A stretch of DNA of 14,868 bases from the IMG/VR virus record IMGVR_UViG_2563366990_000002, positions 1 through 14,868 of that record; one strand, written 5' to 3'. The first letter of the stretch is position 1, and the number at the start of each line of letters is the position of its first letter. Of the stretch, positions 1 to 14,868 are shown piece by piece. Made by a program: the position numbers and the translations under genes. This DNA is from a virus. Lineage: Duplodnaviria; Heunggongvirae; Uroviricota; Caudoviricetes. The notes below the pieces were generated by a model. That model did no database searches and was not told where the DNA came from. It saw only the letters and a list, made by a program, of their open reading frames with translations.

Positions 1-12
1 GAAATGTAAGGC

Positions 13-318
13 TTATGGGTCATTTCTGCGTTCCTTCTGCTTCAGGTAGCGGTCTGCCAGACGGCAAAAGCATTCTTCAATAAAGGCGCTGCCCATAATG
101 CCCAGCGCGCACGCCAGACCGACCACAACCAGTTCCGGCATGTCCGGAAATTTAAACAGCGGAATGGCGGCAACCGGTGCCACGGCAGAGCCCATAATCA
201 TTCGCCCGATAAGCAGACGGGCTGTGATGCGATCGCGGCTCACCATGAGACGCCCCAGCCCGATGGCAGCACCGATGATAATCAGTTTTGCCAGGAGTGA
301 AGTCTGACCGTCCGGCAT
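13..318 (-). CDS. small phage membrane protein, possibly holin-like (function tentative)
   Basis: 101-aa ORF with about three hydrophobic helix-like segments (LLAKLIIIGAAIGLGRLMV, IMGSAVAPVAAIPLF, LVVVGLACALGIMGSAFI); ATG at 318 lies 4 nt after the stop of the upstream tube-like gene, with a GGGGTGA Shine-Dalgarno-like motif. Product inferred from size and hydrophobicity only. Confidence 0.45.
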   Translation of the reverse strand: MPDGQTSLLAKLIIIGAAIGLGRLMVSRDRITARLLIGRMIMGSAVAPVAAIPLFKFPDMPELVVVGLACALGIMGSAFIEECFCRLADRYLKQKERRNDP

Positions 319-322
319 GGCA

Positions 323-784
323 TCACCCCTTCAGATCGCGGGTGTCACGGGCTGACAGGTAGGGCACGCCGTCAATGCTGATAAAGTCCGGGCTTGTGAC
401 CATGAACTTGATTTTTTTCGTGGTCTTTCCGGCTTCACCTGCGCTGATGTTCACCACGTCCGACAACATGGGGACGCAGCCGAATACCTCGATTTTTTCC
501 TCCTCGCTGCCGTTGTTGGCATAAAAGAGAAAATCCTTTTCAGGAATGGCACGCCACGACCCCGCAGAGCGGGCCACAGCACCAAACTTTTTAAAGTTCT
601 GCGCGTCGACTTCCACCTCCACATCGGCAGAAACAGAACCACGGGTGTAGCCGTTTGGCACGCCGCGCGTCTGTGCCACGGCGCTGTTGTCGGTGATGGT
701 GACGGTGGCGCTTTCCACGTGGATCATGATCCCGTCGTAGTTGATATCAAACGCGCCGCCGCTGATACGTTCATTTCCGGCCAT
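323..784 (-). CDS. putative phage tail tube-like structural protein
   Basis: 153 aa from ATG at 784 (MAGNERISGG...), preceded by GGAG; start lies 1 nt after the stop of the upstream sheath-like gene. Size and position directly after the sheath-like gene suggest a tube protein; I chose the 784 start over the longer 814 start because 814 overlaps the sheath-like gene. Confidence 0.5.
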   Translation of the reverse strand: MAGNERISGGAFDINYDGIMIHVESATVTITDNSAVAQTRGVPNGYTRGSVSADVEVEVDAQNFKKFGAVARSAGSWRAIPEKDFLFYANNGSEEEKIEVFGCVPMLSDVVNISAGEAGKTTKKIKFMVTSPDFISIDGVPYLSARDTRDLKG

Positions 785-785
785 G

Positions 786-1931
786 TCAGATCTCCAGTGC
801 TGTGTCGAGTTCAATACTTACGCCAATGGCTTTTGCGCTCTCGTAGGGGCGTACCACAATGTAAATCTGCACGTGTGTACTGCTGGTCCAGACGATGGTG
901 ATATCCCCGTCCTGTGGCGGTTTAACCTCGCCGGGGAACGGTACGCCGTTAATCTCCGTGGCGAGCGCCATTTCACGCAGCGTGCGGCTGAAATATGTCT
1001 GGCTGGCGGCAATGCTGCCCGGTGTGCTGTTGAGTGCGCGATCCGCAAGGCGGGCAATGGCGCGCAGACGTACACGGCGGGAGACCTTATCCACCACGCG
1101 CACGTTTTCGATGACCTGGTAATCGCCCCCCTCCACATCAAGGGTGCGTCCGTCTGACCAGTAGAGCCCGTCGAAATCGTGATACCACATGGGCACGCTG
1201 AAGCGTTTGCCTTCCAGCGAGCGCAGCGTGGCCAGCTCAAGGGGCTGTTTCTTGCCGTCCTGCGGGATCTCATCGTTACCCATCGCCACCAGGGCACCGG
1301 TTGCCACACGTGCCGGACTGTCCGCAACGGTGACGGAAGGATTACAGAGACGGCCCGCCAGTACGCCGGGCTCATTTCCCCATAAGCGGGGAACCACCAT
1401 CACGCCAGGTGCTGCCACGCCGTCCTGTATGGCACTGATGCGGGTGACGTATGCCGCCCATGCCTCATCCTTGCCCGGTCCGGCCACGCACAGCATGAAC
1501 CAGACAAAGCGGCCATAAGCGGACTGAAGCAGGGCGCGGGTTTCGGTGGCGCGGTTAACGGCATCTTTGGCCGTGATGTCAATGGCAATCACCACGCCCT
1601 CGGCAGAGGCGATGGTCTGCGCTTTTTTCACCGCGTCCACCCATGCGGCGTTAGCGTCGCCACCCTCCGGTGCCGGGGGTTTGGGTTCAGACAGAACGTG
1701 AACATAGGCAAACCAGTTCTGGCCACCGTTGGCGATTGCGGCGCTAAGCGTGGATTTAAGCAGGCTTTCATCCGGTCCCAGCACGTCGTCCAGGTCGGTC
1801 TCAGGGGAGACGGAAAGGGTGTTACCTGTGTTCTTTTTGCCATAGCCCACAAAAAGCAGCGTGCGCTCCACTTCACGGGTGGCACCGTTGAAACGGTTCT
1901 GATGGCTTACGGTTACATTCGGCCAGCTCAC
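786..1931 (-). CDS. putative phage tail sheath-like structural protein
   Basis: 381-aa ORF starting with GTG at 1931, preceded by AAGGAG at 7-nt spacing; tightly packed after the virion morphogenesis gene. Sheath assignment is from size, position and general resemblance to contractile-tail structural proteins, not from a verified motif. Confidence 0.5.
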   Translation of the reverse strand: MSWPNVTVSHQNRFNGATREVERTLLFVGYGKKNTGNTLSVSPETDLDDVLGPDESLLKSTLSAAIANGGQNWFAYVHVLSEPKPPAPEGGDANAAWVDAVKKAQTIASAEGVVIAIDITAKDAVNRATETRALLQSAYGRFVWFMLCVAGPGKDEAWAAYVTRISAIQDGVAAPGVMVVPRLWGNEPGVLAGRLCNPSVTVADSPARVATGALVAMGNDEIPQDGKKQPLELATLRSLEGKRFSVPMWYHDFDGLYWSDGRTLDVEGGDYQVIENVRVVDKVSRRVRLRAIARLADRALNSTPGSIAASQTYFSRTLREMALATEINGVPFPGEVKPPQDGDITIVWTSSTHVQIYIVVRPYESAKAIGVSIELDTALEI

Positions 1932-1942
1932 GGTGTGACTCC

Positions 1943-2707
1943 TTATCTGATATCCTGTGCGTCAACGTCCAGGCCGTAGCCCATTGCGTTCATCTGGCGT
2001 GCCAGGATGTGTGAAAATTCTTCGTTTGTTACCCCCAGAAAGACGCGCGACGGAAGGGTAATGGTCCATGTCCTTGGGCTGTTACGTTGTCGTATTCCCG
2101 GACCATCACTGCTGTGAAGGTCGCGAAAATTTTCCCAGTCGTCGCGCTCAAATCTTGCCAGCAGCCAGCCTGCCTGTCGGTTAGATACCCTTCTCCGTAT
2201 CATTGACAGGGTGGCTTTTCGCCAGCGCTTGCCGCTTTTCAGCTCAAGCCCCCATGCTCTCAGCGCCTGTGCCTGCTTCAGGGAACACGGTACGGAACGC
2301 CCCGGTTTTTTGTGCCGGAAGCTGTCGCCGTGATAGCGGATGGTGGCGCCGTTGTGATGTGCCCACGCGACGTTACTCGCCGACGCTGTCGGGCCGTATC
2401 TGACTGCGCGGAAATACACCTTCACCGCGTCCTGTCCCGGTATCTCCCGCACTGCCATAAGGCGCGGGAGTTTTTTAAGCATCTTTCCGGTGTTCTTGCC
2501 TGCCTTCTTTTTTTTATTTTTCCGTGGTTCCCACGGCGTGCCGTCTGGTGCGCACTGGTTGCGCTGATGGCGTCTGGCTGCGGCGATAATGCCGTGCCGG
2601 GCAATACGCCATAACAGGCGATGGCGTTTTTTCGGGGGCAGATCCAGCGACTGAAGCATCGCCTGCGCTTCTGCCAGCTGCTGCGGGTTCAGCTGGCCGC
2701 TTATCAT
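1943..2707 (-). CDS. phage virion morphogenesis / tail completion protein (P2 gpS-like family), longer than P2 gpS
   Basis: 254-aa ORF whose ATG overlaps the stop of the upstream gene (ATGA at 2704-2707). The N-terminal region with a PDGTPWEPRK-type segment and basic patch resembles the virion morphogenesis family as I recall it. Contains a Lys-rich stretch encoded by an A8 run. Confidence 0.6.
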   Translation of the reverse strand: MISGQLNPQQLAEAQAMLQSLDLPPKKRHRLLWRIARHGIIAAARRHQRNQCAPDGTPWEPRKNKKKKAGKNTGKMLKKLPRLMAVREIPGQDAVKVYFRAVRYGPTASASNVAWAHHNGATIRYHGDSFRHKKPGRSVPCSLKQAQALRAWGLELKSGKRWRKATLSMIRRRVSNRQAGWLLARFERDDWENFRDLHSSDGPGIRQRNSPRTWTITLPSRVFLGVTNEEFSHILARQMNAMGYGLDVDAQDIR

Positions 2708-3177
2708 TCGCGGCTCCTGCTGACAAACAGCTCCATGGTTTCCGCCGTCCAGATTTCAGGGTTAACCAGTGTCCAGCGTTTCCCCCTGTACGGAACGGGG
2801 CCGTCTTCCTGCACCCGGATGATCAGCGGGTCAGCCAGTCCCACCGTGATATCGAGAAGGCACGAGTCCTCATCGTTAAACTGCGGGTCGACGTTCACAT
2901 CCTCCGGGCGGAATTCCTCCCTCAGTGGGTCCGCGTGCTCTTCCAGCCAGGCCATGACCAGCGCGTAAACCAGCCCCGGTGAGTATTTACGGAACGGGAA
3001 GTTATCCCATGCAATCACGCCGGTGTACGTCATCACGCCCATGCGGATCTGGTCGTTACCCAGCGCCTTCTGACTGCGGATAAGCTGCGCGTCTTCCTGA
3101 CTGCTCATGAAGAACTGCATGGCGTCAGGCGGCAGATTTTCGGTAATGAAGGCGGTCAGGCTTTCCAGCTGGTTCAT
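2704..3177 (-). CDS. phage tail completion / head-tail joining protein (P2 gpR-like, tentative)
   Basis: 157-aa ORF; its ATG overlaps the stop of gpL (ATGA at 3174-3177) and its stop overlaps the start of the next gene. Position directly after gpL and before the gpS-like gene, plus size, suggest a gpR-like completion protein. Confidence 0.5.
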   Translation of the reverse strand: MNQLESLTAFITENLPPDAMQFFMSSQEDAQLIRSQKALGNDQIRMGVMTYTGVIAWDNFPFRKYSPGLVYALVMAWLEEHADPLREEFRPEDVNVDPQFNDEDSCLLDITVGLADPLIIRVQEDGPVPYRGKRWTLVNPEIWTAETMELFVSRSRE

Positions 3178-3647
3178 ATGATGTGCACTCCTGCGCGTCT
3201 GTGCCCCAGCATGTTACGCATGACCAGCGAGGCTTCAGCCAGTAAGGTGGCGCGTGTGTCCTCGCTTTCCTGCCCCGGATAGGTTTCACGGCGACCAATG
3301 GTGGCGAACTCGCCCATAAGATCGGCCTTGGCACGGGCATAAACGGCCTTTTTGTACTGTGCGACCAGCTGGGTTTCATCGCCCATCCTGGCCCCCGGTA
3401 CGTCTGCGGCGCGTTCATGCCCCTGCGCCTTCCAGTGCGCCACAACCGGCGCCAGCGTGGTGTTCACCTCGGCCACTGCGGCAAGCAGCGCCATGGCCGC
3501 CGTGTCGTCGGGTAAATCAGCCGGAAGCGTGCGTGACCCCTGAAGCTCAGCCAGATCAAGGTCCGGCCAGAACGGCTCGCCGTTTGTCACCGTCTGCGGT
3601 GTGGATTTCAGCGGTTTACCGCTGACGCTGAAGCTCGGTTCGCTCAT
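3174..3647 (-). CDS. L: phage head completion / stabilization protein (P2 gpL family)
   Basis: 157 aa from ATG at 3647 (MSEPSFSVSGKPL...), preceded by GAGG at about 6-nt spacing. Size is close to P2 gpL (about 169 aa) and it sits immediately after the small terminase gene as in the P2 O-N-M-L order. Confidence 0.8.
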   Translation of the reverse strand: MSEPSFSVSGKPLKSTPQTVTNGEPFWPDLDLAELQGSRTLPADLPDDTAAMALLAAVAEVNTTLAPVVAHWKAQGHERAADVPGARMGDETQLVAQYKKAVYARAKADLMGEFATIGRRETYPGQESEDTRATLLAEASLVMRNMLGHRRAGVHII

Positions 3648-3754
3648 GACGTGCCTCATATGAATAAAAAGGCGGGCTGTCCGGGATTCCACGGCCATAC
3701 AGTTTCCGTCACTGATGCCTCCTCCCGCGCCCGCCCGGCCCTGCGGGTAGTCGT

Positions 3755-4453
3755 TTACGCTACATTAAGGGCGCTGATGCGTGCCCTGATGCGCGCCCTG
3801 ATACTTTTTACGCCAGCGGTACGGCTCAGTGCTGCCGCCTGTGCCAGGTATGCGTCTGCCTTTTCCAGTACGGCAGTATCATTAATCGCGGTGGCTCTCG
3901 GTTTGCCCGCCTCGTCGCGCAGAAGATACAGCCCGGCAAATCTGAACCACTTCGCGCGGATTTCCTCATGCAGCCGCCACGTGGTGGTGACGTTCCTGAA
4001 GGTGCGCGAAAAATACGGCTCTATGCTGTGTCCGGCCTCGCTGTTGTCGGTGGCCCACTGCAGCACCGTGTCGGCCACGAAGGCGGGCAGGGTGCTACGG
4101 AAGTTGTCCGGCGTGGCCTGGCCTTCACTGATGGCAATGTCTGCCCAGTCAAGGGCGCGACTCAGGTCGCCCGTGTCGAACAGCCAGATGATGCAGTACA
4201 CCAGTACCGGGCAGGCGTGGCGCTTTCCGTCAGCGATATAGCGCTCCGCGACGGGCAGCCAGCGCGGCAGGAGAATGTCGCGCTTGAACGCCAGCCGCTC
4301 TTCACGGACCGGAAGACTGCGCAGCCGTGCCACATCGCGATCAAGCTCCGCGCGTAACAGGTGGAAGCTGACCGGGGAGGCCGTCAGCGCCTCCCGGCGT
4401 TCGAGTGCCTCCTGTGTGCGGATTTTCGCCCGGTGTCGCTGGCAGGGTGTCAT
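3755..4453 (-). CDS. M: terminase small (endonuclease) subunit, P2 gpM family
   Basis: 232-aa ORF directly after the major capsid gene; size and position match P2 gpM (about 247 aa). C-terminus carries an in-frame IRARIRAR repeat. Confidence 0.85.
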   Translation of the reverse strand: MTPCQRHRAKIRTQEALERREALTASPVSFHLLRAELDRDVARLRSLPVREERLAFKRDILLPRWLPVAERYIADGKRHACPVLVYCIIWLFDTGDLSRALDWADIAISEGQATPDNFRSTLPAFVADTVLQWATDNSEAGHSIEPYFSRTFRNVTTTWRLHEEIRAKWFRFAGLYLLRDEAGKPRATAINDTAVLEKADAYLAQAAALSRTAGVKSIRARIRARISALNVA

Positions 4454-4470
4454 TGCGCCGCCCTCTGTGC

Positions 4471-5490
4471 TTATGCGCCGACGTCTTCGGCTTCTTCTGC
4501 GCCCTTGATGGTCAGCTTGTCGTAGGCCGCGTAAATTTCGTCGTGCTCCACGGCGTAACCTTCCATGCGCAGATAGTTATTTTCAAAACGCTTGCGATCG
4601 TCGTTCCACTCCGCACGGCGCTGACGGGTGCCGCGCTGCGTGTAGATGTGAAGGTTTGCCAGCGTGGTGACAATCAGGCGCCCTTCCGGCATGAACGGCG
4701 GGGTGTATGCTGTCAGCCCGGCGATCTGGCGACCGATAAGCTGCGCGGCCACTTTTTCCGTGGGGGCGTCGATGGCGTTAAGCAGCGTCACCTTGTCCTG
4801 TGCCACAAGATCGGGCGCAACCAGTACCACCAGATCCGGATGACCGCGATACGACTCATCAATGAGGGTATGCACGAGGTCTGCCACGGCTGCATCCAGC
4901 CCGATAAAGTCGCCACCCTTGCCCAGCGTCGGGCCAGCCTCCACGATCTGTTTTGCGCTGCGGCCTTTGACGATGGCATGCCAGCCGGTGTTGACGTCCT
5001 CGCCGTTTTTGTTGGTTACCGGGTCGGTATCTTCGGCTACGCTGGTACCGTTAAAGGCGATGCGCAGGATATCCAGCGCAATCTGTCTGTTAACGAAATT
5101 CTGAATGCGGTTAAAGAACTCGTTTTCACTTCCTGCGTTCGCCCAGGTGACCAGTGTGGTGTACAGGAGGTGGGCGCCGGAATCGGTTTCAGCCAGCTTG
5201 TATTCATTCCCGGTAACACCCAGCGGAAGGGTGAAGCGGGCATTTTTTTTACGTCCGGTATGGAGGCCCGGAACGCCGGTGGTAACCACCTGGCCTGTCA
5301 CCTGTTCAACATCCAGCACGTTCGGCAGTTTTGATAAAAACTCGTCGGAGTGCATGATGGCGTCACGCAGCGCGGTCTCCTTCGGGTCAGACAGCGCAAA
5401 ATAGCGTGTGACGTCGTCAACTCCGTTTGCCGCACCCAGCCCGGCAGCGTACTTACGAAGCAGTGATTCGGTTTTCTGGTTCAGTTGCAT
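4471..5490 (-). CDS. N: major capsid protein, P2 gpN family
   Basis: 339-aa ORF between the scaffold and small terminase genes; size close to P2 gpN (about 357 aa) and conserved gene order. Uninterrupted long ORF with normal amino-acid composition. Confidence 0.9.
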   Translation of the reverse strand: MQLNQKTESLLRKYAAGLGAANGVDDVTRYFALSDPKETALRDAIMHSDEFLSKLPNVLDVEQVTGQVVTTGVPGLHTGRKKNARFTLPLGVTGNEYKLAETDSGAHLLYTTLVTWANAGSENEFFNRIQNFVNRQIALDILRIAFNGTSVAEDTDPVTNKNGEDVNTGWHAIVKGRSAKQIVEAGPTLGKGGDFIGLDAAVADLVHTLIDESYRGHPDLVVLVAPDLVAQDKVTLLNAIDAPTEKVAAQLIGRQIAGLTAYTPPFMPEGRLIVTTLANLHIYTQRGTRQRRAEWNDDRKRFENNYLRMEGYAVEHDEIYAAYDKLTIKGAEEAEDVGA

Positions 5491-5501
5491 GTTGCGTATC
5501 C

Positions 5502-6560
5502 TTAAACAAAGTCAAACGGTTTTTCGCTTTCTGCCGGTGTGCCGGCCGGGCGTGGCGTGATGCCGGTGGCTGACAGCTTCGTGGTCAGGTCGTTAAGTTT
5601 TTCGGCAATGGCTTTGATTTCTTCTTTGTCGGTGTCGTCCCGGCGACGGGCGGCAAAGCGGCGGTAACGTTCGCCTTTTTCCGGTGTGATGGTGCTGAAG
5701 GCTTTGATGGCGTCTTCCAGCTTCGCTTTTGCAGCGGTAAAGGCTTCGGCCTTAACCTCGTCTTCCGGGGCGGCTTTCACTTCTTCTGCCAGCTCTGCCA
5801 CCTCTGCGGCGGCGTCGGCGATTTCGGCGGCGATTTCCGCGACTTCGGCTTTTGCTTCTTCCGGCGTGTCTGCTGTGCCCTCGCCAGCGGCAGCGGCGCT
5901 GCCGCCTTCCACCAGGGTGATCAGCTTTTCAAGCAGTGCTTTAATTTCGTCCATTTTTGCGTCCTCGCCTGTATCAGGCTTACTGGTATCGGTGTTGTCG
6001 GTGTTGTCGGTCTGTCCTGCGCTGAACAGGCGTTTCAGGAATGATTCAGGTTTACTGGGGGCATGGGTGGTGTCCGGTGACAGGCTGCCCAGCGTGAACG
6101 TCTGGCAGTTCGCCCGCTGTGCTGTGTATTCCTCGTTGTTCAGGGTGAAGCGTATTTTTTCCGTCCCCAGACTGGCGGGGATATCCGTCACCGCCACGCC
6201 CAGGAGATAGTCGCGTCCGCTCCGGGCGAAGTTCTCCACTATCTCGGCGGATGTGAACAGCTTCTGCCCCAGTCTGTTGGCTTCAATCAGGTACTGGTTA
6301 GGGACCAGCCGCGCGTAGAGGCGGGTTTTACCGTCCTCGCCGGTTTCCGCTTTCAGTGAGTCCACTTCACCCAGATTACTGGTGTACTGGCGGTGTCCGA
6401 TTTCTTCCTCATGCCAGGGCCACAGCATCGCCGTGTAGGTGTTGCGGGAATAGGTTTCAGCGGCATCAGTCAGCCACTGCGGATCAATTTCGCGGCCGTC
6501 AACGGTCGGTCCTGATGTGGCGATACATATCCAGTCGGTCATCAACGTTGGCTGCGGCAT
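5502..6560 (-). CDS. O: capsid scaffolding protein, P2 gpO family, with extended Ala/Glu-rich region
   Basis: 352 aa from ATG at 6560 (MPQPTLMTDW...), preceded by GAGG. First gene of the minus-strand late operon, followed by the capsid gene. Long Ala/Glu/Lys-rich coiled-coil-like region typical of scaffold proteins. The ORF track's longer 408-aa version starts inside the regulatory region and is less likely. Confidence 0.85.
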   Translation of the reverse strand: MPQPTLMTDWICIATSGPTVDGREIDPQWLTDAAETYSRNTYTAMLWPWHEEEIGHRQYTSNLGEVDSLKAETGEDGKTRLYARLVPNQYLIEANRLGQKLFTSAEIVENFARSGRDYLLGVAVTDIPASLGTEKIRFTLNNEEYTAQRANCQTFTLGSLSPDTTHAPSKPESFLKRLFSAGQTDNTDNTDTSKPDTGEDAKMDEIKALLEKLITLVEGGSAAAAGEGTADTPEEAKAEVAEIAAEIADAAAEVAELAEEVKAAPEDEVKAEAFTAAKAKLEDAIKAFSTITPEKGERYRRFAARRRDDTDKEEIKAIAEKLNDLTTKLSATGITPRPAGTPAESEKPFDFV

Positions 6561-6726
6561 CGTGGCCTCTTTTACGTGAAAATCTGAAGAACTCCGGTGA
6601 GTGTCGGGATTTTTACAGCGGGGGGCTACTGGCTGAATTCGGCTGTCTTCGGATAACGTGGGATAGCCGAACACAGCCGAAATTTTCTGCCTGAATGCGG
6701 GCCGGATGCGCCGCCATAATGGGCGC
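6561..6726. promoter_or_regulatory. divergent late-promoter region between the gpO and gpP operons
   Basis: 166-bp non-coding gap between divergently transcribed capsid and terminase/portal operons. Contains a 13-bp imperfect inverted repeat (CGGCTGTCTTCGG at 6640-6652, CCGAACACAGCCG at 6667-6679) and a TGT-N10-ACA element at 6602-6617. In P2 the equivalent region carries Ogr-activated late promoters. Confidence 0.55.
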
Positions 6727-8529
6727 ATGGCTAAATATTCTGACGAAATTAAAGAGGCGGCCCGCTCGCTTTATCTGAAGCGGTGGCATCCCCGAGATAT
6801 TGCGGCGGAGCTCGGTATTCCGCCGCGCACGGTTTACCACTGGTGTGATGTGGGGCAGTGGGCCGCCCTGCTGCCCGCTGAATCCGTTGAGGAGGTGATC
6901 GCCCGGCGTATTGATGTGCTGACCGGGCGCGAGGGTAAGACGGAGTGCGAACTTGCCGAACTGCGCGAGCTTATCGCACAGCACGTGAAGATTATCGCCC
7001 AGAAAAACAAACACGCTGAAAGGATGGCGGAAATTGCCGCCACGCGTCCGGCAGTGTGCGACGACGGTGTGGCGGCGACCAGCGGCGGGGGGGAAGGGAA
7101 AAAGCGGCGCTACCGGAAAAACAACGTTTCCGGGCTGACTGCTGAAATGCTGGATGCATGGGCGCGTAAAAATCTTTATGCCTACCAGCTGCACTGCCGC
7201 GAGAACCGGCACCGTGAGTGGCGTTTCATCCTCAAGAGTCGCCAGATAGGCATGACCTGGTATTTTGCATGGGAGGCGTTCGAAGATGCGGTGGTGACTG
7301 GTGATAACCAGATATTCTTTTCTGCGTCACGGGTTCAGGCGGAAATCTTCCGCGAATATATTATTAATTTCGCCCTGCAGTTCGGGATCACGCTCACGGG
7401 TAAGCATATCCGTTTAAGCAATGGCGCAATGCTGCGTTTCCTGTCCACCAATGCCAGTACCGCCCAGGGATTTAACGGCCACCTTTACGGCGATGAGGTG
7501 TTCTGGATCCCAAAATTCACGCGACTGCATGAAGTGGCCTCGGCAATGGCAACCCACGACAAATACCGCACGACGTACTTTTCGACACCCAGCGCCAAAA
7601 CCCACCAGGCTTATCTGGTCTGGAACGGTGACGACTGGCGCGGGGATGATCCGGCGCGTCGTGCTGTTGAGTTTCCGAAAGAAAGCGCGATGCGTGTGGG
7701 CTGTGAATGCCCTGACGGGATCTGGCGCTACATTATCCGGCTGGAAGAGGCGGTGGCGGGTGGCCTGTCTGCACGGGTTGATATTGAACGTATCAGGAAC
7801 CGCTACAACCCGACCACCTATGCGATGCTGTACGGCTGCGAGTTTGTTGACAGCAAGGATGCGGTATTTAAGTTCTCCGAACTGGTCAGGTGTGAGGTGG
7901 AGATGGAGACGTGGGGTGACTACGATCCCACGGCGGCACGTCCGTTCGGCAATCGTGAGGTGTGGGCGGGCTTTGACCCGTCAAGGTCCGGGGATAATTC
8001 CACGTTTGTAATTGTGGCTCCGCCTGTCCATGAGGGCGAGCGGTTCCGTGTGCTCGCCGTCTGGCAGTGGCAGGGATTTAACTTCACCTGGCAGGCCGAT
8101 CAGATCCGCGAACTGATGCAGCGCTTTAACATTACCTATATCGGCATAGATATCACCGGTATCGGGAAAGGGGTGTTTGATATCGTCAGTCGCTTTGCGC
8201 CACGTGAGGCTAACGCCATTCTTTACAGCGTGGAGAGCAAAAACCGCCTGGTGATGAAAATGATAGACGTGGTGGCCCATAAGCGTATCGAGTGGGCGAA
8301 AGACGCCATTGATGAGGCCAGCCGTGAACGCACGGAGATCCCCGCGTCGTTCATGTCCATACGCCGCACCACCACAAAAAGCGGTAACGCGCTGACGTTC
8401 GTGGCGGAACGGTCGGATGTTACGGGGCATGCGGATGTGTTTTTTGCCATTTCGCACGCCGTGATTAATGAGCCTGTAGATTATGACTATGAACGCCCGT
8501 CCACATGGGCCTTCGGGAAAGCCGCATGA
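6727..8529 (+). CDS. P: terminase large (ATPase) subunit, P2 gpP family
   Basis: 600 aa from ATG at 6727 (MAKYSDEIK...); size matches P2 gpP (about 590 aa). Divergent from gpO and followed by the portal gene with a 4-nt ATGA overlap. An alternative start at 6706 would add 7 aa. Confidence 0.9.
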   Translation: MAKYSDEIKEAARSLYLKRWHPRDIAAELGIPPRTVYHWCDVGQWAALLPAESVEEVIARRIDVLTGREGKTECELAELRELIAQHVKIIAQKNKHAERMAEIAATRPAVCDDGVAATSGGGEGKKRRYRKNNVSGLTAEMLDAWARKNLYAYQLHCRENRHREWRFILKSRQIGMTWYFAWEAFEDAVVTGDNQIFFSASRVQAEIFREYIINFALQFGITLTGKHIRLSNGAMLRFLSTNASTAQGFNGHLYGDEVFWIPKFTRLHEVASAMATHDKYRTTYFSTPSAKTHQAYLVWNGDDWRGDDPARRAVEFPKESAMRVGCECPDGIWRYIIRLEEAVAGGLSARVDIERIRNRYNPTTYAMLYGCEFVDSKDAVFKFSELVRCEVEMETWGDYDPTAARPFGNREVWAGFDPSRSGDNSTFVIVAPPVHEGERFRVLAVWQWQGFNFTWQADQIRELMQRFNITYIGIDITGIGKGVFDIVSRFAPREANAILYSVESKNRLVMKMIDVVAHKRIEWAKDAIDEASRERTEIPASFMSIRRTTTKSGNALTFVAERSDVTGHADVFFAISHAVINEPVDYDYERPSTWAFGKAA

Positions 8530-9578
8530 GCAAGAAACGCAGAAACAAAACGTCACGCGTGACGAAAAAAGCATTCACGCCCGCACGTGGCAGCACAATC
8601 ACGTTTGGTCAGCCGGAACCGGTGCTGACCACCGGCACGGACTACCATAACATCTGGTATGACAACGAACACAACCACTGGCAGCTGCCGATTAACCGCC
8701 TGGCACTGGCGCAGCTCCCGAACCTTAACGCCCAGCACGGTGGGGTGCTGTATGCCCGCCGTAACATGGTGGCGGGGGGCTATACCGGTGGTGGTCTCAC
8801 AACGGACCAGATGGAACAGGCGGTATTTGACTACCTGTTGTTCGGCGATCTCGCCCTGCTCAAGGTGCGTAACGTATTCGGCGACGTCGTGGCACTTGAG
8901 CCGCTTCCGTCGCTGTATCTCCGGCGCCGCAAAACCGGTGAGTTCGTGGTGCTTCAGGAAGGTCCCGCGCTGGTCTATACGCCGGAAGATATTATCTTTC
9001 TGCGGATGTATGATCCGCGTCAGCAAATTTACGGGCTGCCGGATTATATCGGTGGCATCCACTCGGCGCTGCTGAACAGCGAGGCCAGCCTTTTTCGTCG
9101 CCGTTACTACAACAACGGGGCGCATATGGGCTTTTTGCTGTATACGAACGACCCTGGGATCACCACGGAGATGGAGGATGAGATCCGCGAGAAGGTGGCG
9201 GAGTCTAAGGGGCTGGGAAATTTCCGCAATCTGTACATCAACATCCCCAAAGGTTCGCCGGATGGGGTGAAAATTATTCCGATTGGTGAGGTGAGCGCCA
9301 AGGATGAATTTTCAAACATCAAGGGGATCAGCGCCCAGGATGTGTTTACGGCACACCGCTTTCCTGCCGGTCTTGCGGGGATTATCCCCACGAACGGGGC
9401 CACCATCCCTAACCCGGAAACGACGCGTGAAACGTACCGCAAGGATGAGGTGATACCGCTTCAGCGTAAAATCATGAACGCCGTGAACAGCGATCCCGAT
9501 ATACCGGAACACCTTTATCTTTGTTTTGATGTGGATGCCGGGCATGTGGCGGAAGAAAAAGCGGTGCCGGTCGGGTAA
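8526..9578 (+). CDS. Q: portal protein, P2 gpQ family
   Basis: 350 aa from ATG at 8526 (MSKKRRNK...), overlapping the gpP stop. Size matches P2 gpQ (about 344 aa) and P-then-Q co-transcription matches P2. Confidence 0.9.
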   Translation: MSKKRRNKTSRVTKKAFTPARGSTITFGQPEPVLTTGTDYHNIWYDNEHNHWQLPINRLALAQLPNLNAQHGGVLYARRNMVAGGYTGGGLTTDQMEQAVFDYLLFGDLALLKVRNVFGDVVALEPLPSLYLRRRKTGEFVVLQEGPALVYTPEDIIFLRMYDPRQQIYGLPDYIGGIHSALLNSEASLFRRRYYNNGAHMGFLLYTNDPGITTEMEDEIREKVAESKGLGNFRNLYINIPKGSPDGVKIIPIGEVSAKDEFSNIKGISAQDVFTAHRFPAGLAGIIPTNGATIPNPETTRETYRKDEVIPLQRKIMNAVNSDPDIPEHLYLCFDVDAGHVAEEKAVPVG

Positions 9579-9615
9579 AATGTCCTCCCCGGAATACGTG
9601 TTATCGGGAGGTAAG

Positions 9616-9879
9616 ATGCGGATTTTTAAAGCCCGGTGTCCTGACTGTGGCGCACCTGCTGTCATCCGGAAGACAGACTGGAAAACCCCTGAACTTGCGG
9701 ATCTGTACTGTGCATGCAGTGATGTCGAATGCGGGCATACCTTCGTCTGTACGATGACCTTTTCCCATACCCTCAGCCCCGGTGCCCGCTCCGGTCGCAA
9801 TATGGTGAAGTTTCTTGTTGATGCCATGCGCCCGGAAGATCGCCGGTATGCGCTTGAACTACTGTCGCGGCGTTCCTGA
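9616..9879 (+). CDS. Ogr/Delta-family C4 zinc-finger transcriptional activator homolog
   Basis: 87 aa from ATG at 9616, preceded by strong GGGAGG at 4-nt spacing. Motif CPDC-x20-C-x-C-x4-C-x2-TF aligns with P2 Ogr (CPLC ... YHQCQNVNCSATF). Has a roughly 40-aa C-terminal extension relative to the zinc-finger core. Confidence 0.8.
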   Translation: MRIFKARCPDCGAPAVIRKTDWKTPELADLYCACSDVECGHTFVCTMTFSHTLSPGARSGRNMVKFLVDAMRPEDRRYALELLSRRS

Positions 9880-9895
9880 CGCGCTTCGCTTGTCT

Positions 9896-9940
9896 GCTGC
9901 TTCGCCGGGGCAAAAAGAATTTTTACCCCGGCGAAGCAGC
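9896..9940. repeat. perfect 15-bp-stem inverted repeat (GCTGCTTCGCCGGGG ... CCCCGGCGAAGCAGC) with A5/T5 loop
   Basis: Read directly from the sequence. Located 17 bp after the Ogr-like gene stop. No U-tract follows on either strand, so it is not a classic intrinsic terminator; could be an RNA stability or termination element or a protein-binding or packaging-related site. Confidence 0.7.
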
Positions 9941-9975
9941 CCTGATAAAGGGGGGGGGTGGTGTAAATTCGGACG

Positions 9976-10007
9976 TTATAAAATTAAAAAAGCGCCGTAA
10001 CGGCGCT
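9976..10007 (-). terminator. rho-independent terminator for the minus-strand 75-aa gene
   Basis: Hairpin AGCGCCG-TAA-CGGCGCT at 9991-10007 followed on the minus strand by TTTTTAATTTT (9976-9990), 30 nt downstream of the stop at 10038. Confidence 0.65.
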
Positions 10008-10037
10008 CGGGTAGAGTATTTATTCATGCAAAAATAG

Positions 10038-10265
10038 TTAATCCGGCTCCCCTCGTATTATTGTTTCTGTATGAATATCGGGAATCTGTTTTGTACCGGA
10101 TAGATATTTTACAGCAAGACTCATTAAGTCATTGTAATTATAATCCCTTCCAGCTACAGCTCCACTCAGGATGTAGGCGTCTTCAATATTGGCTGCGATG
10201 CAGGACAAGATATCAGCTAAAAGGGTTGTATCGTAGTTCGTATAGCGTTTGATTAGATGAGACAT
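10038..10265 (-). CDS. hypothetical 75-aa protein, AT-rich accessory (moron-like) gene
   Basis: ATG at 10265 preceded by GGAGG at 4-nt spacing; own terminator downstream and AT-rich upstream promoter-like region. Local GC is far below the rest of the window. No recognisable family. The ORF track's longer 90-aa version lacks a ribosome-binding site. Confidence 0.6.
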   Translation of the reverse strand: MSHLIKRYTNYDTTLLADILSCIAANIEDAYILSGAVAGRDYNYNDLMSLAVKYLSGTKQIPDIHTETIIRGEPD

Positions 10266-10445
10266 AAAACCTCCGGGTTGCTTATTAATATTGCTGGCGA
10301 AATCAGTCATTGTGTTAGCTATGTAATATTAACAGAAGTGTAAAGTGTTTTTATTCCGGGGTGGTAATGTTGCATATATTTTCTTAGTGTGTGTCGGGTG
10401 AATGAATTGCGTTGCGGTGAAAAAATCGGGCGCGTCAGTGCGGCC

Positions 10446-10601
10446 TTACTGCTGACGGCGTTCCCGGAGTTCGGTCAGTGCTGCAAGTAAATTCTCCCAC
10501 CACGTTTCTTCCACGACCGGGTTTTGTCGTGAAAGCAGCTGCTGTGCCGACTCAATCATTTTCGTAAGCTCTCTGTCGCTGATCCTCCTGGTGCTGTTCA
10601 T
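10446..10601 (-). CDS. hypothetical 51-aa protein
   Basis: ATG at 10601 (MNSTRRISDRELTK...) preceded by AAGGAG at 6-nt spacing; 48 bp downstream of the preceding ORF in the same orientation; weak hairpin plus T6 after the stop. Charged and helical in character. Confidence 0.5.
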   Translation of the reverse strand: MNSTRRISDRELTKMIESAQQLLSRQNPVVEETWWENLLAALTELRERRQQ

Positions 10602-10649
10602 GGTGCGCTCCTTTAGTTGGCTGTTTCTGGTTATGTTCATGGTCTTTGT

Positions 10650-11054
10650 TTACCTGCGTGATTGTCTGCCAGCGGCTGAATGCACATAGCGGGCAATTGC
10701 CGCTTTGCGGTTAATCGATGCCAGTGTTCTGGTGAGTTCTGCGTTGTGTTTGTGTGCCTGCTCTTCGTGGTACTGCCGCATGATTTTTCCGGCAGGCGTG
10801 AGCGGCTCCGGCTCTCCGGGCGGACGGCGCGGACGAACGGCGACAAGCCAGCTGCGGTTGGTGCTGTCCGGTCGTCCGTTGAGTATGTCGGTGATGATGG
10901 TCGTGGTGGTGCGATCGGGACTGACGACCGTGATTTCCAGCTCATCGCCCGGTTGTGGCCCCGTGGCAATGTTGTTCAGGGTCAGTAAGGGCGTGCGCTG
11001 GCGCATCAGTTCGTCAAAACGCTGTCGCTGCATGGCGCAATAAAAGCGGGTCAT
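10650..11054 (-). CDS. hypothetical 134-aa protein, translationally coupled to the replication gene
   Basis: ATG at 11054 overlaps the gpA stop (ATGA at 11051-11054). Pro/Arg-rich sequence with no recognised family. The region is GC-rich with several overlapping alternative-frame ORFs, so coding status is moderately uncertain. Confidence 0.5.
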   Translation of the reverse strand: MTRFYCAMQRQRFDELMRQRTPLLTLNNIATGPQPGDELEITVVSPDRTTTTIITDILNGRPDSTNRSWLVAVRPRRPPGEPEPLTPAGKIMRQYHEEQAHKHNAELTRTLASINRKAAIARYVHSAAGRQSRR

Positions 11055-13570
11055 TGTGGCGCCTCCGTATTCGGTGCGGGGGTGATATCAATGCGGCGGG
11101 TGCTGTCATTCCAGTACGAGGTGCGCCCGTCAGCCAGGCGCACGCGGGCACCGTGACGGACGGAAACGACGGCGCTTTCATGCAGCTGCACGCCCAGCGC
11201 ATCAAGCTCGCGGGTGATTTGTGCGGTGATGTGTGGCTCAGCGGTCAGAGCGACACTCACGCGAACGCCGCCAGCGGGCGCACTGATGCCGCCGTTTTTC
11301 ACGGTTTCCGTGTCAGGTGGCGGGCTTTTCAGCTGCCTGGTGAGTTGTTTTCGCTCTGTGGGGGTCAGTGACCTTAACCATTCACCCAAATCACCTTCCG
11401 GCAGGGTAAGTCGCTGCTCCCTGCGTCCGTCCGGCTGCCTTTCTGGCGGGTCGTTTATGGTCAGATTCTGGTCAGGGGGACAGTTATTGCCACGAGTCCA
11501 AGGTGCGGCAAAGCCGCACTCAACGTCAAAACCCTCGTCCGTGCGGTCTTCGTTTTCCGGCTTACGTCTGACCAGTTTCCAGGTGTCCGGGTGGGTGCAT
11601 ATGGTGTAGCGCTCCCCGAGTGACGGGGCGCGGACGCCGTAAATACGTTGCGGGAATTCGCCGTAGTCGTTGGCCTCTTCGGCAGTTTCGTATGCGGTGC
11701 GGACCAGGTACGTGTTGCGGGGAATGAGCACACCACCCTGGCGGGTGATATAGGTGGCAAAACATCCCACGTCGGCGGCGGCCAGTATGGCGTCAATGTC
11801 GTCATGGTCCAGACGCTGCGGGGCAGCCGGGTTACGGGCCATCTGCCCGGCAAGACGGCGGAGTTCGCGCCATACCTGGCGGGGCGGGATACCGAAGAAC
11901 TGGAACTGGTGGATGCGGTGAAGGCCTGCCCAGCCGATGGCGTTCTCCACGGTTTCGGCCATGGTTTTGCCTGATTCCTTATCGACGTAAGGTTTGCCGG
12001 TTTTCGGGTCATTCCCCATGAAGGTGCTGGCGTCCAGGTTCTTACCGATATAGGTCGCGATATAGCTTGTCGGTGTGCCTTTTGTCGGGTCGATTTTTTC
12101 GCATTTAAAACGCGGGGAGATATCATCACCCAGCTCTGCGCGGTCCTCCCTGATGGCGGCGTTGCGCATGATTTCAGTGATACGGGCTTCGTTTTCCTGG
12201 CTGGTGAATACCAGCATGTGCCAGTGCGGTGTACCGTCGTGGTGGGGCTCCACTGTGCGCACGCCGTACCAGCCCAGCCCGGCCTTGTCGATGGCCCTGC
12301 GGACGGCGGCGAAAAAGCGGTAAACCAGATAATCACTGGCATCGCGTACCGTTGCTCCGCAGTATTTCGGGTTCAGGCTGCCGTCATCGTTCACGCTGTG
12401 AAAACGGGAAGGGGCTGTGACGGTGACGAAAAACGCCACGTCGCCGCGTGCTTCGGCGACCTGCTCCATCCCCCGGACGCAGGCCATCATCTCGTTACGG
12501 CGGTTACGCGGATTAGAGAGACCTGCCCAGTAGATATCCTCAAGGCTGAACCGTTCTCCCTCTTCGTTCTCGATGTCCCAGGCCTTCAGAAAATCGCGGG
12601 TGCGCTGGCGTTTTTCGCGCCAGTCCAGTAACGCTTCATGGCTGATATATACCGACGTCTTACGTGACACCAGGCCTGCGGCGCGTAACAGCTCTTCACG
12701 CCAGATGTCCCGGAGGTGTCTTAACTGACTGTTCCACCATGTCGCACAGGAAAGGCGCATGACCGCACCCGGCACCCGTTCCGGGTCGGGGTCGGTGCGG
12801 CGGTCGGGCCTGATTTCCAGCGACGGCCAGCAGGGTGGCGTGATACCCAGTTTTAACGCCATGTGTGCCAGTGGCTGGTAGGTCAGTAACCAGGTGAGCA
12901 GGTCATCGTCACCCCTGCCGGTCTTTTCGATGACTTCATCACATGCGCGCTCCAGTGCGGTGGAAAACGCGGTGGCGGTCAGGGTGGCAAGGCGCTGGAT
13001 TTCGTCACGGCTCAGCTGTGGCAGCATAAGCAGTTCATCCAGCCGTTCGCGCGCGGCGGTGGCCTTAAAGGCCGGGGTGGCAAAGCGTTCATTCACACGG
13101 GCGATACGTTTCAGGCGGGCACGCAGCCCGTGACGAACGAAGTTATCCGCCGCATATGCGCTGTTATTCTTAAGCCCTTCCCGGCGTGCGCTCTCCTGTT
13201 TGCGGCTCAGGCGCGCCAGGTCACGGATGAGCGGACCGGCAAGAAACGGCGGCAGGGCGCGCAGCTCTGCCATGGCTTCAGATACCAGCGTTGGCGGATT
13301 TTCGCGTTTGTGTCGCGTCAGTTTTTCCAGTCTGATCCGACGCTCTTCGTCGTGATGAAGATGCGAATTAATTCGCTTCCCTTCGTCTGTGGTTGTCAGG
13401 AAGGCGACGGTTTCTTCATCCAGTCTGGCGTCAGTGCGAATATCCTCGTTGATGTAGCTCTGAATGGCCTGGCGTAATGCGGTTGGCTGCGCTCTGCCGA
13501 ACGTTTCAGGATCGATAACCGGTAGCGGGGCGTTCCACGGGTACGCCAGCTGTGCATTGTGGTCACTCAT
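11051..13570 (-). CDS. A: replication initiation endonuclease, P2 gpA family (rolling-circle HUH nickase)
   Basis: 839 aa from ATG at 13570 (MSDHNAQLAYPW...). Contains the HUH-type motif PHWHMLVF characteristic of P2 A / phiX174 A-type rolling-circle initiators; size comparable to P2 gpA (about 761 aa). The track's GTG start at 13579 is less likely than the ATG that overlaps the upstream stop. Confidence 0.9.
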   Translation of the reverse strand: MSDHNAQLAYPWNAPLPVIDPETFGRAQPTALRQAIQSYINEDIRTDARLDEETVAFLTTTDEGKRINSHLHHDEERRIRLEKLTRHKRENPPTLVSEAMAELRALPPFLAGPLIRDLARLSRKQESARREGLKNNSAYAADNFVRHGLRARLKRIARVNERFATPAFKATAARERLDELLMLPQLSRDEIQRLATLTATAFSTALERACDEVIEKTGRGDDDLLTWLLTYQPLAHMALKLGITPPCWPSLEIRPDRRTDPDPERVPGAVMRLSCATWWNSQLRHLRDIWREELLRAAGLVSRKTSVYISHEALLDWREKRQRTRDFLKAWDIENEEGERFSLEDIYWAGLSNPRNRRNEMMACVRGMEQVAEARGDVAFFVTVTAPSRFHSVNDDGSLNPKYCGATVRDASDYLVYRFFAAVRRAIDKAGLGWYGVRTVEPHHDGTPHWHMLVFTSQENEARITEIMRNAAIREDRAELGDDISPRFKCEKIDPTKGTPTSYIATYIGKNLDASTFMGNDPKTGKPYVDKESGKTMAETVENAIGWAGLHRIHQFQFFGIPPRQVWRELRRLAGQMARNPAAPQRLDHDDIDAILAAADVGCFATYITRQGGVLIPRNTYLVRTAYETAEEANDYGEFPQRIYGVRAPSLGERYTICTHPDTWKLVRRKPENEDRTDEGFDVECGFAAPWTRGNNCPPDQNLTINDPPERQPDGRREQRLTLPEGDLGEWLRSLTPTERKQLTRQLKSPPPDTETVKNGGISAPAGGVRVSVALTAEPHITAQITRELDALGVQLHESAVVSVRHGARVRLADGRTSYWNDSTRRIDITPAPNTEAPQ

Positions 13571-13983
13571 GCGTCGCACTCCCCGGCAGTCGCCGCCTGA
13601 AACGCCGCGCGGTACAGCACGAGAAGGCGCTGGTATTCACCGATAAAGTCTTCTGCGGTGTATATGCCTTTCACGGCCACGCTGTGCGTTGTCATTTCCA
13701 GAACAAGCGTCATCTCTGACGACGACCAGCTGATGGCGGTGCTGTCGGTTCCGTTGATGTGAAATAAACCAAAACCATCACCATCGCCTTTCACGTCCAC
13801 GCGGTAACGGCCGTCAACGGTGAAGGAGAAATCCCCGTATGTGGTGACGCGTCTGGCGGCCTGTTTACAGGCGCGGCGGTAATAGTCGTGCCAGTCGTTC
13901 AGGCGGGAAGCCAGCCGGGGATCCACTGCCCACATCCAGTTAAAAAAATCCTGAATATCTGAAAGTCCCTTAACGCTCTTCAT
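13567..13983 (-). CDS. hypothetical 138-aa early-operon protein
   Basis: ATG at 13983 preceded by GGAGG at 5-nt spacing; stop overlaps the gpA start (ATGA at 13567-13570). Position corresponds to the small ORFs upstream of A in P2-like early operons. Confidence 0.6.
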   Translation of the reverse strand: MKSVKGLSDIQDFFNWMWAVDPRLASRLNDWHDYYRRACKQAARRVTTYGDFSFTVDGRYRVDVKGDGDGFGLFHINGTDSTAISWSSSEMTLVLEMTTHSVAVKGIYTAEDFIGEYQRLLVLYRAAFQAATAGECDA

Positions 13984-14051
13984 GAGAACCTCCGGTAACA
14001 GACGTGCGGAAGCCTCCCGCGCACGGGTGCGGGATGGCTTCAGGATGTTGT

Positions 14052-14333
14052 TTAGTGGTGGTGTTGCTGCTGGTTGATAAGGTCCTGCAGTTCTGCCAGG
14101 TCTTCGGCCAGATAGCTGAAGACTGCCGCGTAATACCCGGCAGCGATACCATCGTTAAGTCGATGTAATGCGTTTGACTGCATGATGAAGGTGACAGATG
14201 CAGCCCGATGGAGTCTGCGGTTAATTTCAGTGCGGATGTGAAGACGCTCAGCGCGGGCGCGCTGTTGGTGACTGGAGTTCAGACGTGTGCTCTTCCGATC
14301 TGCGCGGGCGCGCTGTTGTTTGCGGTTTGCCAT
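14052..14333 (-). CDS. hypothetical small early-operon protein, reading frame contaminated by a 51-bp adapter-derived insertion
   Basis: ATG at 14333 preceded by GAGG. The encoded segment ADRKSTRLNSSHQQRAR (and SEEHTSELQSPTARPR in the overlapping 14248..14514 minus-strand track ORF) comes from the Illumina adapter plus duplicated flank; the native protein is probably about 76 aa. Confidence 0.5.
   Translation of the reverse strand: MANRKQQRARADRKSTRLNSSHQQRARAERLHIRTEINRRLHRAASVTFIMQSNALHRLNDGIAAGYYAAVFSYLAEDLAELQDLINQQQHHH
14268..14301 (+). other. Illumina TruSeq adapter sequence (GTGACTGGAGTTCAGACGTGTGCTCTTCCGATCT), assembly contamination
   Basis: Exact 34-nt match to the standard Illumina adapter as I recall it, flanked by a perfect 17-bp direct duplication GCGCGGGCGCGCTGTTG at 14251-14267 and 14302-14318. 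Confidence 0.9.
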
Positions 14334-14505
14334 GGTGTGGCCTCTTTGGTTGTGAATTTTGAAAACTCACCATCCAGAGGTGGAAAACTCGGGGTGGCGA
14401 GGCGTACAGGGTTTCCACAACCGGTAACCAAAGAACCCGGCCCGACCGAAGTCGGCCCCGTACGCCCCGCCATAATTCTGACGCGAAAAAGACGTGGCAA
14501 TACAG

Positions 14506-14531
14506 TACGCACAAAAAAACCGCTGGCGCGG
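14506..14531 (-). terminator. candidate intrinsic terminator on the minus strand
   Basis: On the minus strand, a short stem AACCGC-GCCA-GCGGTT followed by a T7 run (plus-strand A7 at 14513-14519), about 125 nt downstream of the truncated minus-strand ORF ending at 14654. Stem is short, so strength is uncertain. Confidence 0.4.
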
Positions 14532-14653
14532 TTGTGCGCTTTGGTTATCGGCGGGGTGGAAATCCCGGCACCCGTTTTATGAGGTGCGGGAAAACTGTAA
14601 CCCGACCAGGCGAACGCTGGCAAGCGGTTTTTTTGTGTGTGCATGATGATCAC

Positions 14654-14868
14654 TCAGCCCGGTAACAGTTCACAGAGCACTGCGTCAGTTGCGGTGCGGC
14701 GGTGGTAGAGATGAAACGCCGCATCGTCGTTAATGTGCATCTGTATCGTGCTGTTGATGTGTTCAGCGATCATGCAGAACGTCATGTTGTGTATGTCGCG
14801 TAGCTCCGTGACCAGCTCAACCAGATGATCGCTGTATCTGGCGCAATGGTGGTTCTCACCGCATTTTT
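14654..14868 (-). CDS. hypothetical protein, 5'-truncated by the window edge
   Basis: Open frame on the minus strand running from the window end to a TGA at 14654-14656 (...HINSTIQMHINDDAAFHLYHRRTATDAVLCELLPG). Same orientation as the early operon; identity unknown. Confidence 0.45.
   Translation of the reverse strand, partial: KCGENHHCARYSDHLVELVTELRDIHNMTFCMIAEHINSTIQMHINDDAAFHLYHRRTATDAVLCELLPG

Follow-up and report, generated by a model that had tools for sequence, protein, structure and literature searches.

Does a 51-nt block that interrupts a small gene in an Escherichia coli prophage belong to the organism, or did it enter the sequence on the way into the database? The stretch of DNA analysed (referred to as the window) makes up the initial 14,868 nt of scaffold KB732775.1 (1,003,565 bp) from E. 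coli KTE75 (GCA_000351685.1); window and record show no difference over positions 4052-14868. The window represents a P2-like prophage that harbours genes for capsid, terminase, portal, Ogr and GPA replication functions, and a prophage of E. coli N51 is collinear with it from end to end. Directly after the window end follow 1,505 Ns (record positions 14869-16373), the window being the first gap-free piece of the scaffold. An earlier note on this DNA had described an Illumina adapter with a flanking duplication and had regarded it as an assembly artefact inside a gene. The observation is confirmed, and its interpretation as a database artefact rather than a biological feature is supported. The block and the features surrounding it are the following:

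14052 to 14333, minus strand: predicted derepression-protein gene (Pfam PF25738), 93 codons here, 76 codons in its native form.
14248 to 14514, minus strand: spurious 88-codon open reading frame with the adapter peptide RSEEHTSELQSP, crossing the C4 antisense RNA gene and 5' leader.
14251 to 14267, no strand assigned: first 17-nt copy GCGCGGGCGCGCTGTTG, genomic, single copy in related genomes.
14268 to 14301, plus strand: Illumina Multiplexing PCR Primer 2.0, i.e., the TruSeq read-2 adapter GTGACTGGAGTTCAGACGTGTGCTCTTCCGATCT, 34/34 positions, full length.
14302 to 14318, no strand assigned: second 17-nt copy GCGCGGGCGCGCTGTTG, genomic, in the adapter-then-genome orientation found at contig tips elsewhere.
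14390 to 14477, minus strand: C4 antisense RNA (Rfam, full-length, 83.4 bits).
14513 to 14587, minus strand: isrK Hfq-binding RNA (Rfam, full-length, 64.3 bits).

The middle 34 nt of the block are a synthetic oligonucleotide, and its outer 17 nt repeat the genomic sequence next to them. In a published primer table (PMC3012606), Illumina "Multiplexing PCR Primer 2.0" has the sequence 5' GTGACTGGAGTTCAGACGTGTGCTCTTCCGATCT, and the insert that had been proposed to be an Illumina adapter agrees with this sequence at 34 of 34 positions, i.e., it is the complete synthetic oligonucleotide from end to end. It is the sole copy in the window and contains 0 mismatches, while 0.00 copies are expected by chance (200 shuffles); its 3' end (GATCT) is directed at position 14302, and no other adapter or primer k-mer runs were found in the window. 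Two matches to GCGCGGGCGCGCTGTTG are present in the window, a number that was obtained in 0 of 200 shuffles, and apart from the 17-nt pair the 14.9 kb contain no close-range direct repeat of 14 nt or more. The coordinates given in the earlier note, the 34-nt TruSeq adapter and the two perfect flanking copies are thus exact to the base. The bases to the left of the adapter (CTGTTG / CGCTGTTG) were considered as a possible index and rejected, as they are genomic sequence and are not known to match any TruSeq 6-mer index. As a side observation, genomic positions 14245-14250 (CGCTCA) and the primer 3' end at 14296-14301 (CGATCT) are alike in 4 of 6 bases, and the direct repeat grows to 23 nt at 91% identity when these bases are counted. 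This likeness is probably due to chance but could nevertheless have affected an aligner.

With a length of 51 nt, corresponding to 17 codons, the block lies in frame. Its edges are ambiguous inside the repeat, such that removal of 14251-14301, of 14268-14318 or of intermediate registers leads to the same product. The open reading frame at 14052-14333 on the minus strand translates as MANRKQQRARA-DRKSTRLNSSH-QQRARAERLH... and includes KSTRLNSSH, while that at 14248-14514 on the same strand includes RSEEHTSELQSP. The in-frame 51-bp insertion and the two adapter-derived peptides KSTRLNSSH and SEEHTSELQSP, both of which had been predicted, are accordingly seen in the two translations.

In agreement with an artefact inside a gene, the block is missing at every related locus examined. 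In the alignment, E. coli N51 lacks exactly one 17-mer together with the 34-mer. When a junction query of 141 nt centred on the junction was compared with 5,426 complete E. coli genomes, 365 of these matched it and 0 of the 365 covered at least 80% of it; the two-piece matches listed span 83-90 nt as compared with the 141 nt of the query, i.e., they are at least 51 nt short. On the protein level, the 17-aa insertion is missing from all 7 other aligned members of the cluster (74-76 aa). Deletion of the insertion and comparison of the reading frame with homologs, which had been proposed as a check, yielded a 76-aa product, and 6-7 contigs of other E. coli encode exactly this protein under the name 'derepression protein [Escherichia coli]'. 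For comparison on the nucleotide level, a repaired segment of 1,418 nt (13400-14267 plus 14319-14868) was used. Four assemblies stemming from samples other than KTE75 (Logan SRR30325392, GCA_043918675.1, GCA_043910265.1 and GCA_043578505.1) contain this segment with 6 mismatches and no gap, with 0 mismatches between 13594 and 14673 and without the adapter. Within window positions 14150-14420, all 220 non-insert columns are identical in the four assemblies and the 51-nt block is the only difference. Once the 51 nt are removed, nucleotide sequence and protein are therefore the same as in other strains, and the repair, i.e., deletion of 14268-14318 or an equivalent register, is unambiguous.

The interrupted gene matches Pfam PF25738 with a borderline score of 27.4 bits versus a cut-off of 27, which is the same for the 93-aa and the repaired 76-aa protein, and the match is located C-terminal of the insertion. 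Backed by exact identity of the repaired product to entries carrying that name, we assign the gene as one predicted to encode a derepression protein. Directly upstream and on the same strand lie the hits for C4 and isrK, an arrangement that looks like a P1-like c4/antirepressor-style control module within a P2-like prophage. As 51 is divisible by three, the reading frame was not broken and the annotation came to list a 93-aa hypothetical protein. On record, this product stems from one contig only, where its coordinates agree with those in the window, and has been deposited as ELE59572.1 / WP_001561232.1 with the name "hypothetical protein A1UM_00018 [Escherichia coli KTE75]", whereas the 74-76-aa relatives of WP_001561232.1 carry the name 'derepression protein'. 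The corruption of gene annotation that the earlier note had anticipated has thus materialized: both accessions owe their existence to a sequencing primer alone. Full-text literature searches for the adapter-derived peptides and the assembly accessions gave nothing. The block has no biological significance, and the practical value of the finding is one of database hygiene, in that analyses of insertions, repeats or protein lengths at this locus would go astray.

How the oligonucleotide came to reside inside a contig can be approached from its occurrence elsewhere. Perfect matches to the same 34-mer were present in 18 phage records whose Gram-positive, Gram-negative and mycobacterial hosts are unrelated (among them Staphylococcus, Bacillus, Paenibacillus, Mycobacterium, Caulobacter, Vibrio and Stenotrophomonas), and a scan of a species-representative genome collection located it in at least 120 contigs from bacteria and archaea that are likewise unrelated. 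This collection cannot include KTE75, and the scan serves as a survey of where the 34-mer sits. Among the matches listed, 123 of 125 lie at a contig tip, at most 161 nt from the end and with the GATCT end pointing inward, and a median of 13 nt is located outside the 34-mer at these tips. The remaining two are situated 9-29 nt from N runs, i.e., at tips within scaffolds. Several of the occurrences elsewhere have P7 and an index on the preceding side. Such tip-inward 34-mers are the footprint of untrimmed read-through reads that extended a contig tip. With regard to Illumina adapter contamination in general, a class for which NCBI VecScreen and FCS-adaptor screen, KTE75 thus shares the same oligonucleotide in the same orientation to the genome. 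On the other hand, in KTE75 the oligonucleotide is contig-internal, at a distance of 14.3 kb to one end and of 567 nt to the gap, and it is accompanied by a 17-nt duplication and lies in frame within a gene, whereas the 125 matches listed sit at tips or beside Ns.

The oligonucleotide in the window is oriented as at contig tips elsewhere and an N gap begins 567 nt downstream of its end (550 nt past the second 17-nt copy); the sequence from 14268 onward therefore looks like a primer-tailed piece, for which the following feature can be proposed:

14268 to 14868, plus strand: putative 601-nt contig piece whose left tip would be an untrimmed primer tail, in line with the tip-inward rule, and which ends at the N gap.

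The 51-nt block is very probably an in-silico insertion that arose during draft assembly of the KTE75 genome and is not DNA of the organism. We infer the mechanism of the join from the anatomy of the locus alone. A short library fragment would have started at the base that is now 14302, and a read running through this fragment into the adapter would have been left untrimmed, thus providing the left tip of a small piece with a 34-nt primer tail. The neighbouring contig, corresponding to 1-14267, would have ended 17 nt inside the 601-nt piece, the first 17-nt copy being its last 17 nt. Owing to the foreign tail, the true 17-nt overlap would not have been terminal in the two pieces and may hence have escaped recognition, whereupon a gap-closing or patching step would have abutted both pieces without Ns. 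Judged by sequence comparison, the genomic part of the putative piece (14302-14868) is genuine and correctly placed, as it is identical or nearly so in four assemblies. Standard library molecules do not contain the left junction, CTGTTG|GTGACTGG, which leaves either two sequences abutted by software or a rare chimeric molecule. Counting against abutment, an N-free end-to-end join and the survival of a 601-nt piece are unusual for mainstream assemblers. The KTE genomes are, as we assume, ALLPATHS-LG drafts of the Broad Institute.

A chimeric library molecule (genome-primer-genome) would have been formed physically during library preparation or PCR and then been assembled faithfully, i.e., it would constitute an artefact of the bench. 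Such an origin would fit with the insert being exactly the free 34-nt PCR primer without index or P7 at its 5' side, as molecules ending exactly at Multiplexing PCR Primer 2.0 do exist in the three-primer Illumina multiplex PCR scheme. The resemblance of the CGCTCA preceding the first 17-mer to the primer 3' end, with its 23-nt repeat at 91%, could also be taken in its favour, but four of six matching bases are within chance and no annealing scheme that we could construct puts the 5' end of the primer after ...CTGTTG. Moreover, random ligation or template switching usually joins unrelated loci, whereas the genomic pieces at this position are adjacent, in the right order and orientation, and overlap by 17 nt, and a single chimeric molecule is normally outvoted in a high-coverage isolate assembly. 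A join by software is favoured because the pieces are true neighbours in order and orientation and because the left junction is not of a library type; the physical chimera is accordingly considered unlikely.

The adapter might also mark a misjoin of two paralogous P2-like prophages of KTE75, one contributing the gene body on the left and the other the C4/isrK leader on the right. The flanks seem at first sight to speak for this: the left flank (14103-14210) resembles KY202 and N51 closely but shares no more than 70-80% identity with KY171 and with Z1323 at 3.12 Mb, while the right flank (14339-14477) belongs to the other allelic type and is 98-100% identical to KY171 and to Z1323 at 3.12 Mb. 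The allelic switch falls inside a conserved zone of 77 nt that contains the adapter, none of the complete E. coli genomes has both flanks with at least 95% identity at one place, and the scaffold begins within the prophage and has a gap in it. Nevertheless, four independent assemblies exhibit the same flank combination, contiguous, ungapped, 100% identical from 13594 to 14673 and free of the adapter; the reciprocal allelic combination occurs naturally in the related loci L137-L140; and collinearity with the N51 prophage extends over the entire window. The misjoin was dropped as an explanation after contigs encoding the exact repaired protein had proved identical across the junction, and it is now highly improbable. 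The suggestion in the earlier note that the artefact may mark a chimeric join is refuted by flanks that are contiguous in four assemblies with more than 1 kb of identity and by the collinearity with N51. Its advice to treat the structure around 14.2-14.7 kb with caution is still reasonable, albeit owing to the gap of 1,505 Ns. The remaining sequence from 14.2 to 14.87 kb, including the C4 and isrK genes, can be relied upon; the true break is the N gap that follows 14868.

Practically no weight can be given to a genuine chromosomal insertion, be it a small mobile element or an engineered tag, that would have duplicated 17 bp of its target site: perfect short direct host repeats around the insert and an open frame do superficially resemble a transposable element or other target-site-duplicating insertion, but the insert is a commercial oligonucleotide from end to end, has neither terminal inverted repeats nor a transposase or any coding capacity, is single-copy in the window and recurs in unrelated phyla at contig tips only (among the matches listed), while the block is missing from all related loci, which are uninterrupted, the adapter-bearing protein occurs on one contig, the KTE75 record describes an ordinary isolate assembly and 17 bp is longer than typical bacterial target-site duplications.

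Adapter sequence carried into annotation is also found in Staphylococcus phage Andhra (KY442063.1, also NC_047813.1). At both ends of this 'complete genome' record (positions 1-55 and 18492-18546), partial P7, the index CACTGT and the 34-mer are followed by the phage sequence AAATATTAAGG..., and the annotated terminal repeat_region (14-168, 18380-18534) takes in about 42 nt of adapter sequence. Andhra resembles KTE75 in the identity of the 34-mer, its inward orientation and its passage into the annotation, but differs in that the adapter is located at both ends of the record, is preceded by P7 and CACTGT, lies in a repeat_region instead of a coding sequence and is not flanked by a duplication. 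Three further phage records provide additional observations. In Stenotrophomonas phage vB_SmaS_Bhz63 (OR797046.1, 38875-38908) a bare 34-mer resides inside an annotated coding sequence, in Caulobacter phage Ccr29 (KY555145.1, ~150479-150542) P7, the index CTGATC and the 34-mer are intergenic, and in Escherichia phage WPEC3 (PV611058.1, ~295321-295354) a long poly-C run and primer fragments are present at the end of a 'Sir2' coding sequence. The adapter in Kashi_SSH1 carries P7 and index sequence, like that of Ccr29.

We tentatively raise the rather doubtful possibility that a bare internal adapter with a short abutting genomic duplication, in frame, is a recurrent product of one gap-closing step. 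A flanking duplication was sought around the internal adapters of WPEC3, Ccr29, Kashi_SSH1 and Bhz63 and no general signature emerged; Bhz63 contains the only other internal bare 34-mer examined, and a flanking duplication is absent there. Should the possibility hold true, other drafts of the same pipeline and era would carry silent joins that seed singleton 'hypothetical proteins' in RefSeq/nr, and a screen for an internal adapter with an abutting direct repeat would locate and mend such joins.

Some features of the prophage region deserve mention in their own right. The start of the scaffold falls within the late region of the prophage, with window position 1 corresponding to position 1316 of the N51 locus, and according to our own estimate from gene coordinates about 1.7 kb are missing at the N gap when compared with the related locus L132. 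A scaffold start and a gap inside a prophage suggest repeat-induced assembly trouble, possibly caused by a second related prophage in KTE75.

Comparison of 14103-14587 with loci L127-L140 indicated at least two diverged allelic types (70-88% identity) each for the derepression gene body and for the C4/leader part, separated by an invariant zone of about 77 nt that covers the 5' end of the derepression gene. All four allelic combinations were seen in natural E. coli assemblies, which indicates that the invariant zone acts as a recombination joint. The flank combination in the four assemblies and its reciprocal in L137-L140 likewise identify this conserved zone as a natural recombination joint. 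The contigs that encode an exact copy of the adjacent 138-aa protein were without exception of another C4 type, and the region is finely mosaic. Pattern scans of IMG/VR for the natural recombinant and for the individual allelic blocks yielded 0, 0 and 2 matches, such prophages being too few in that collection for these numbers to carry weight.

Finally, three 43-aa N-terminal entries named 'derepression protein, partial' (P0009, P0011 and P0014) represent 22 contigs from other E. coli assemblies, from which it follows that short-read contigs often break in the derepression gene. The breaks lie at about window position 14154, where the allelic types begin to diverge.
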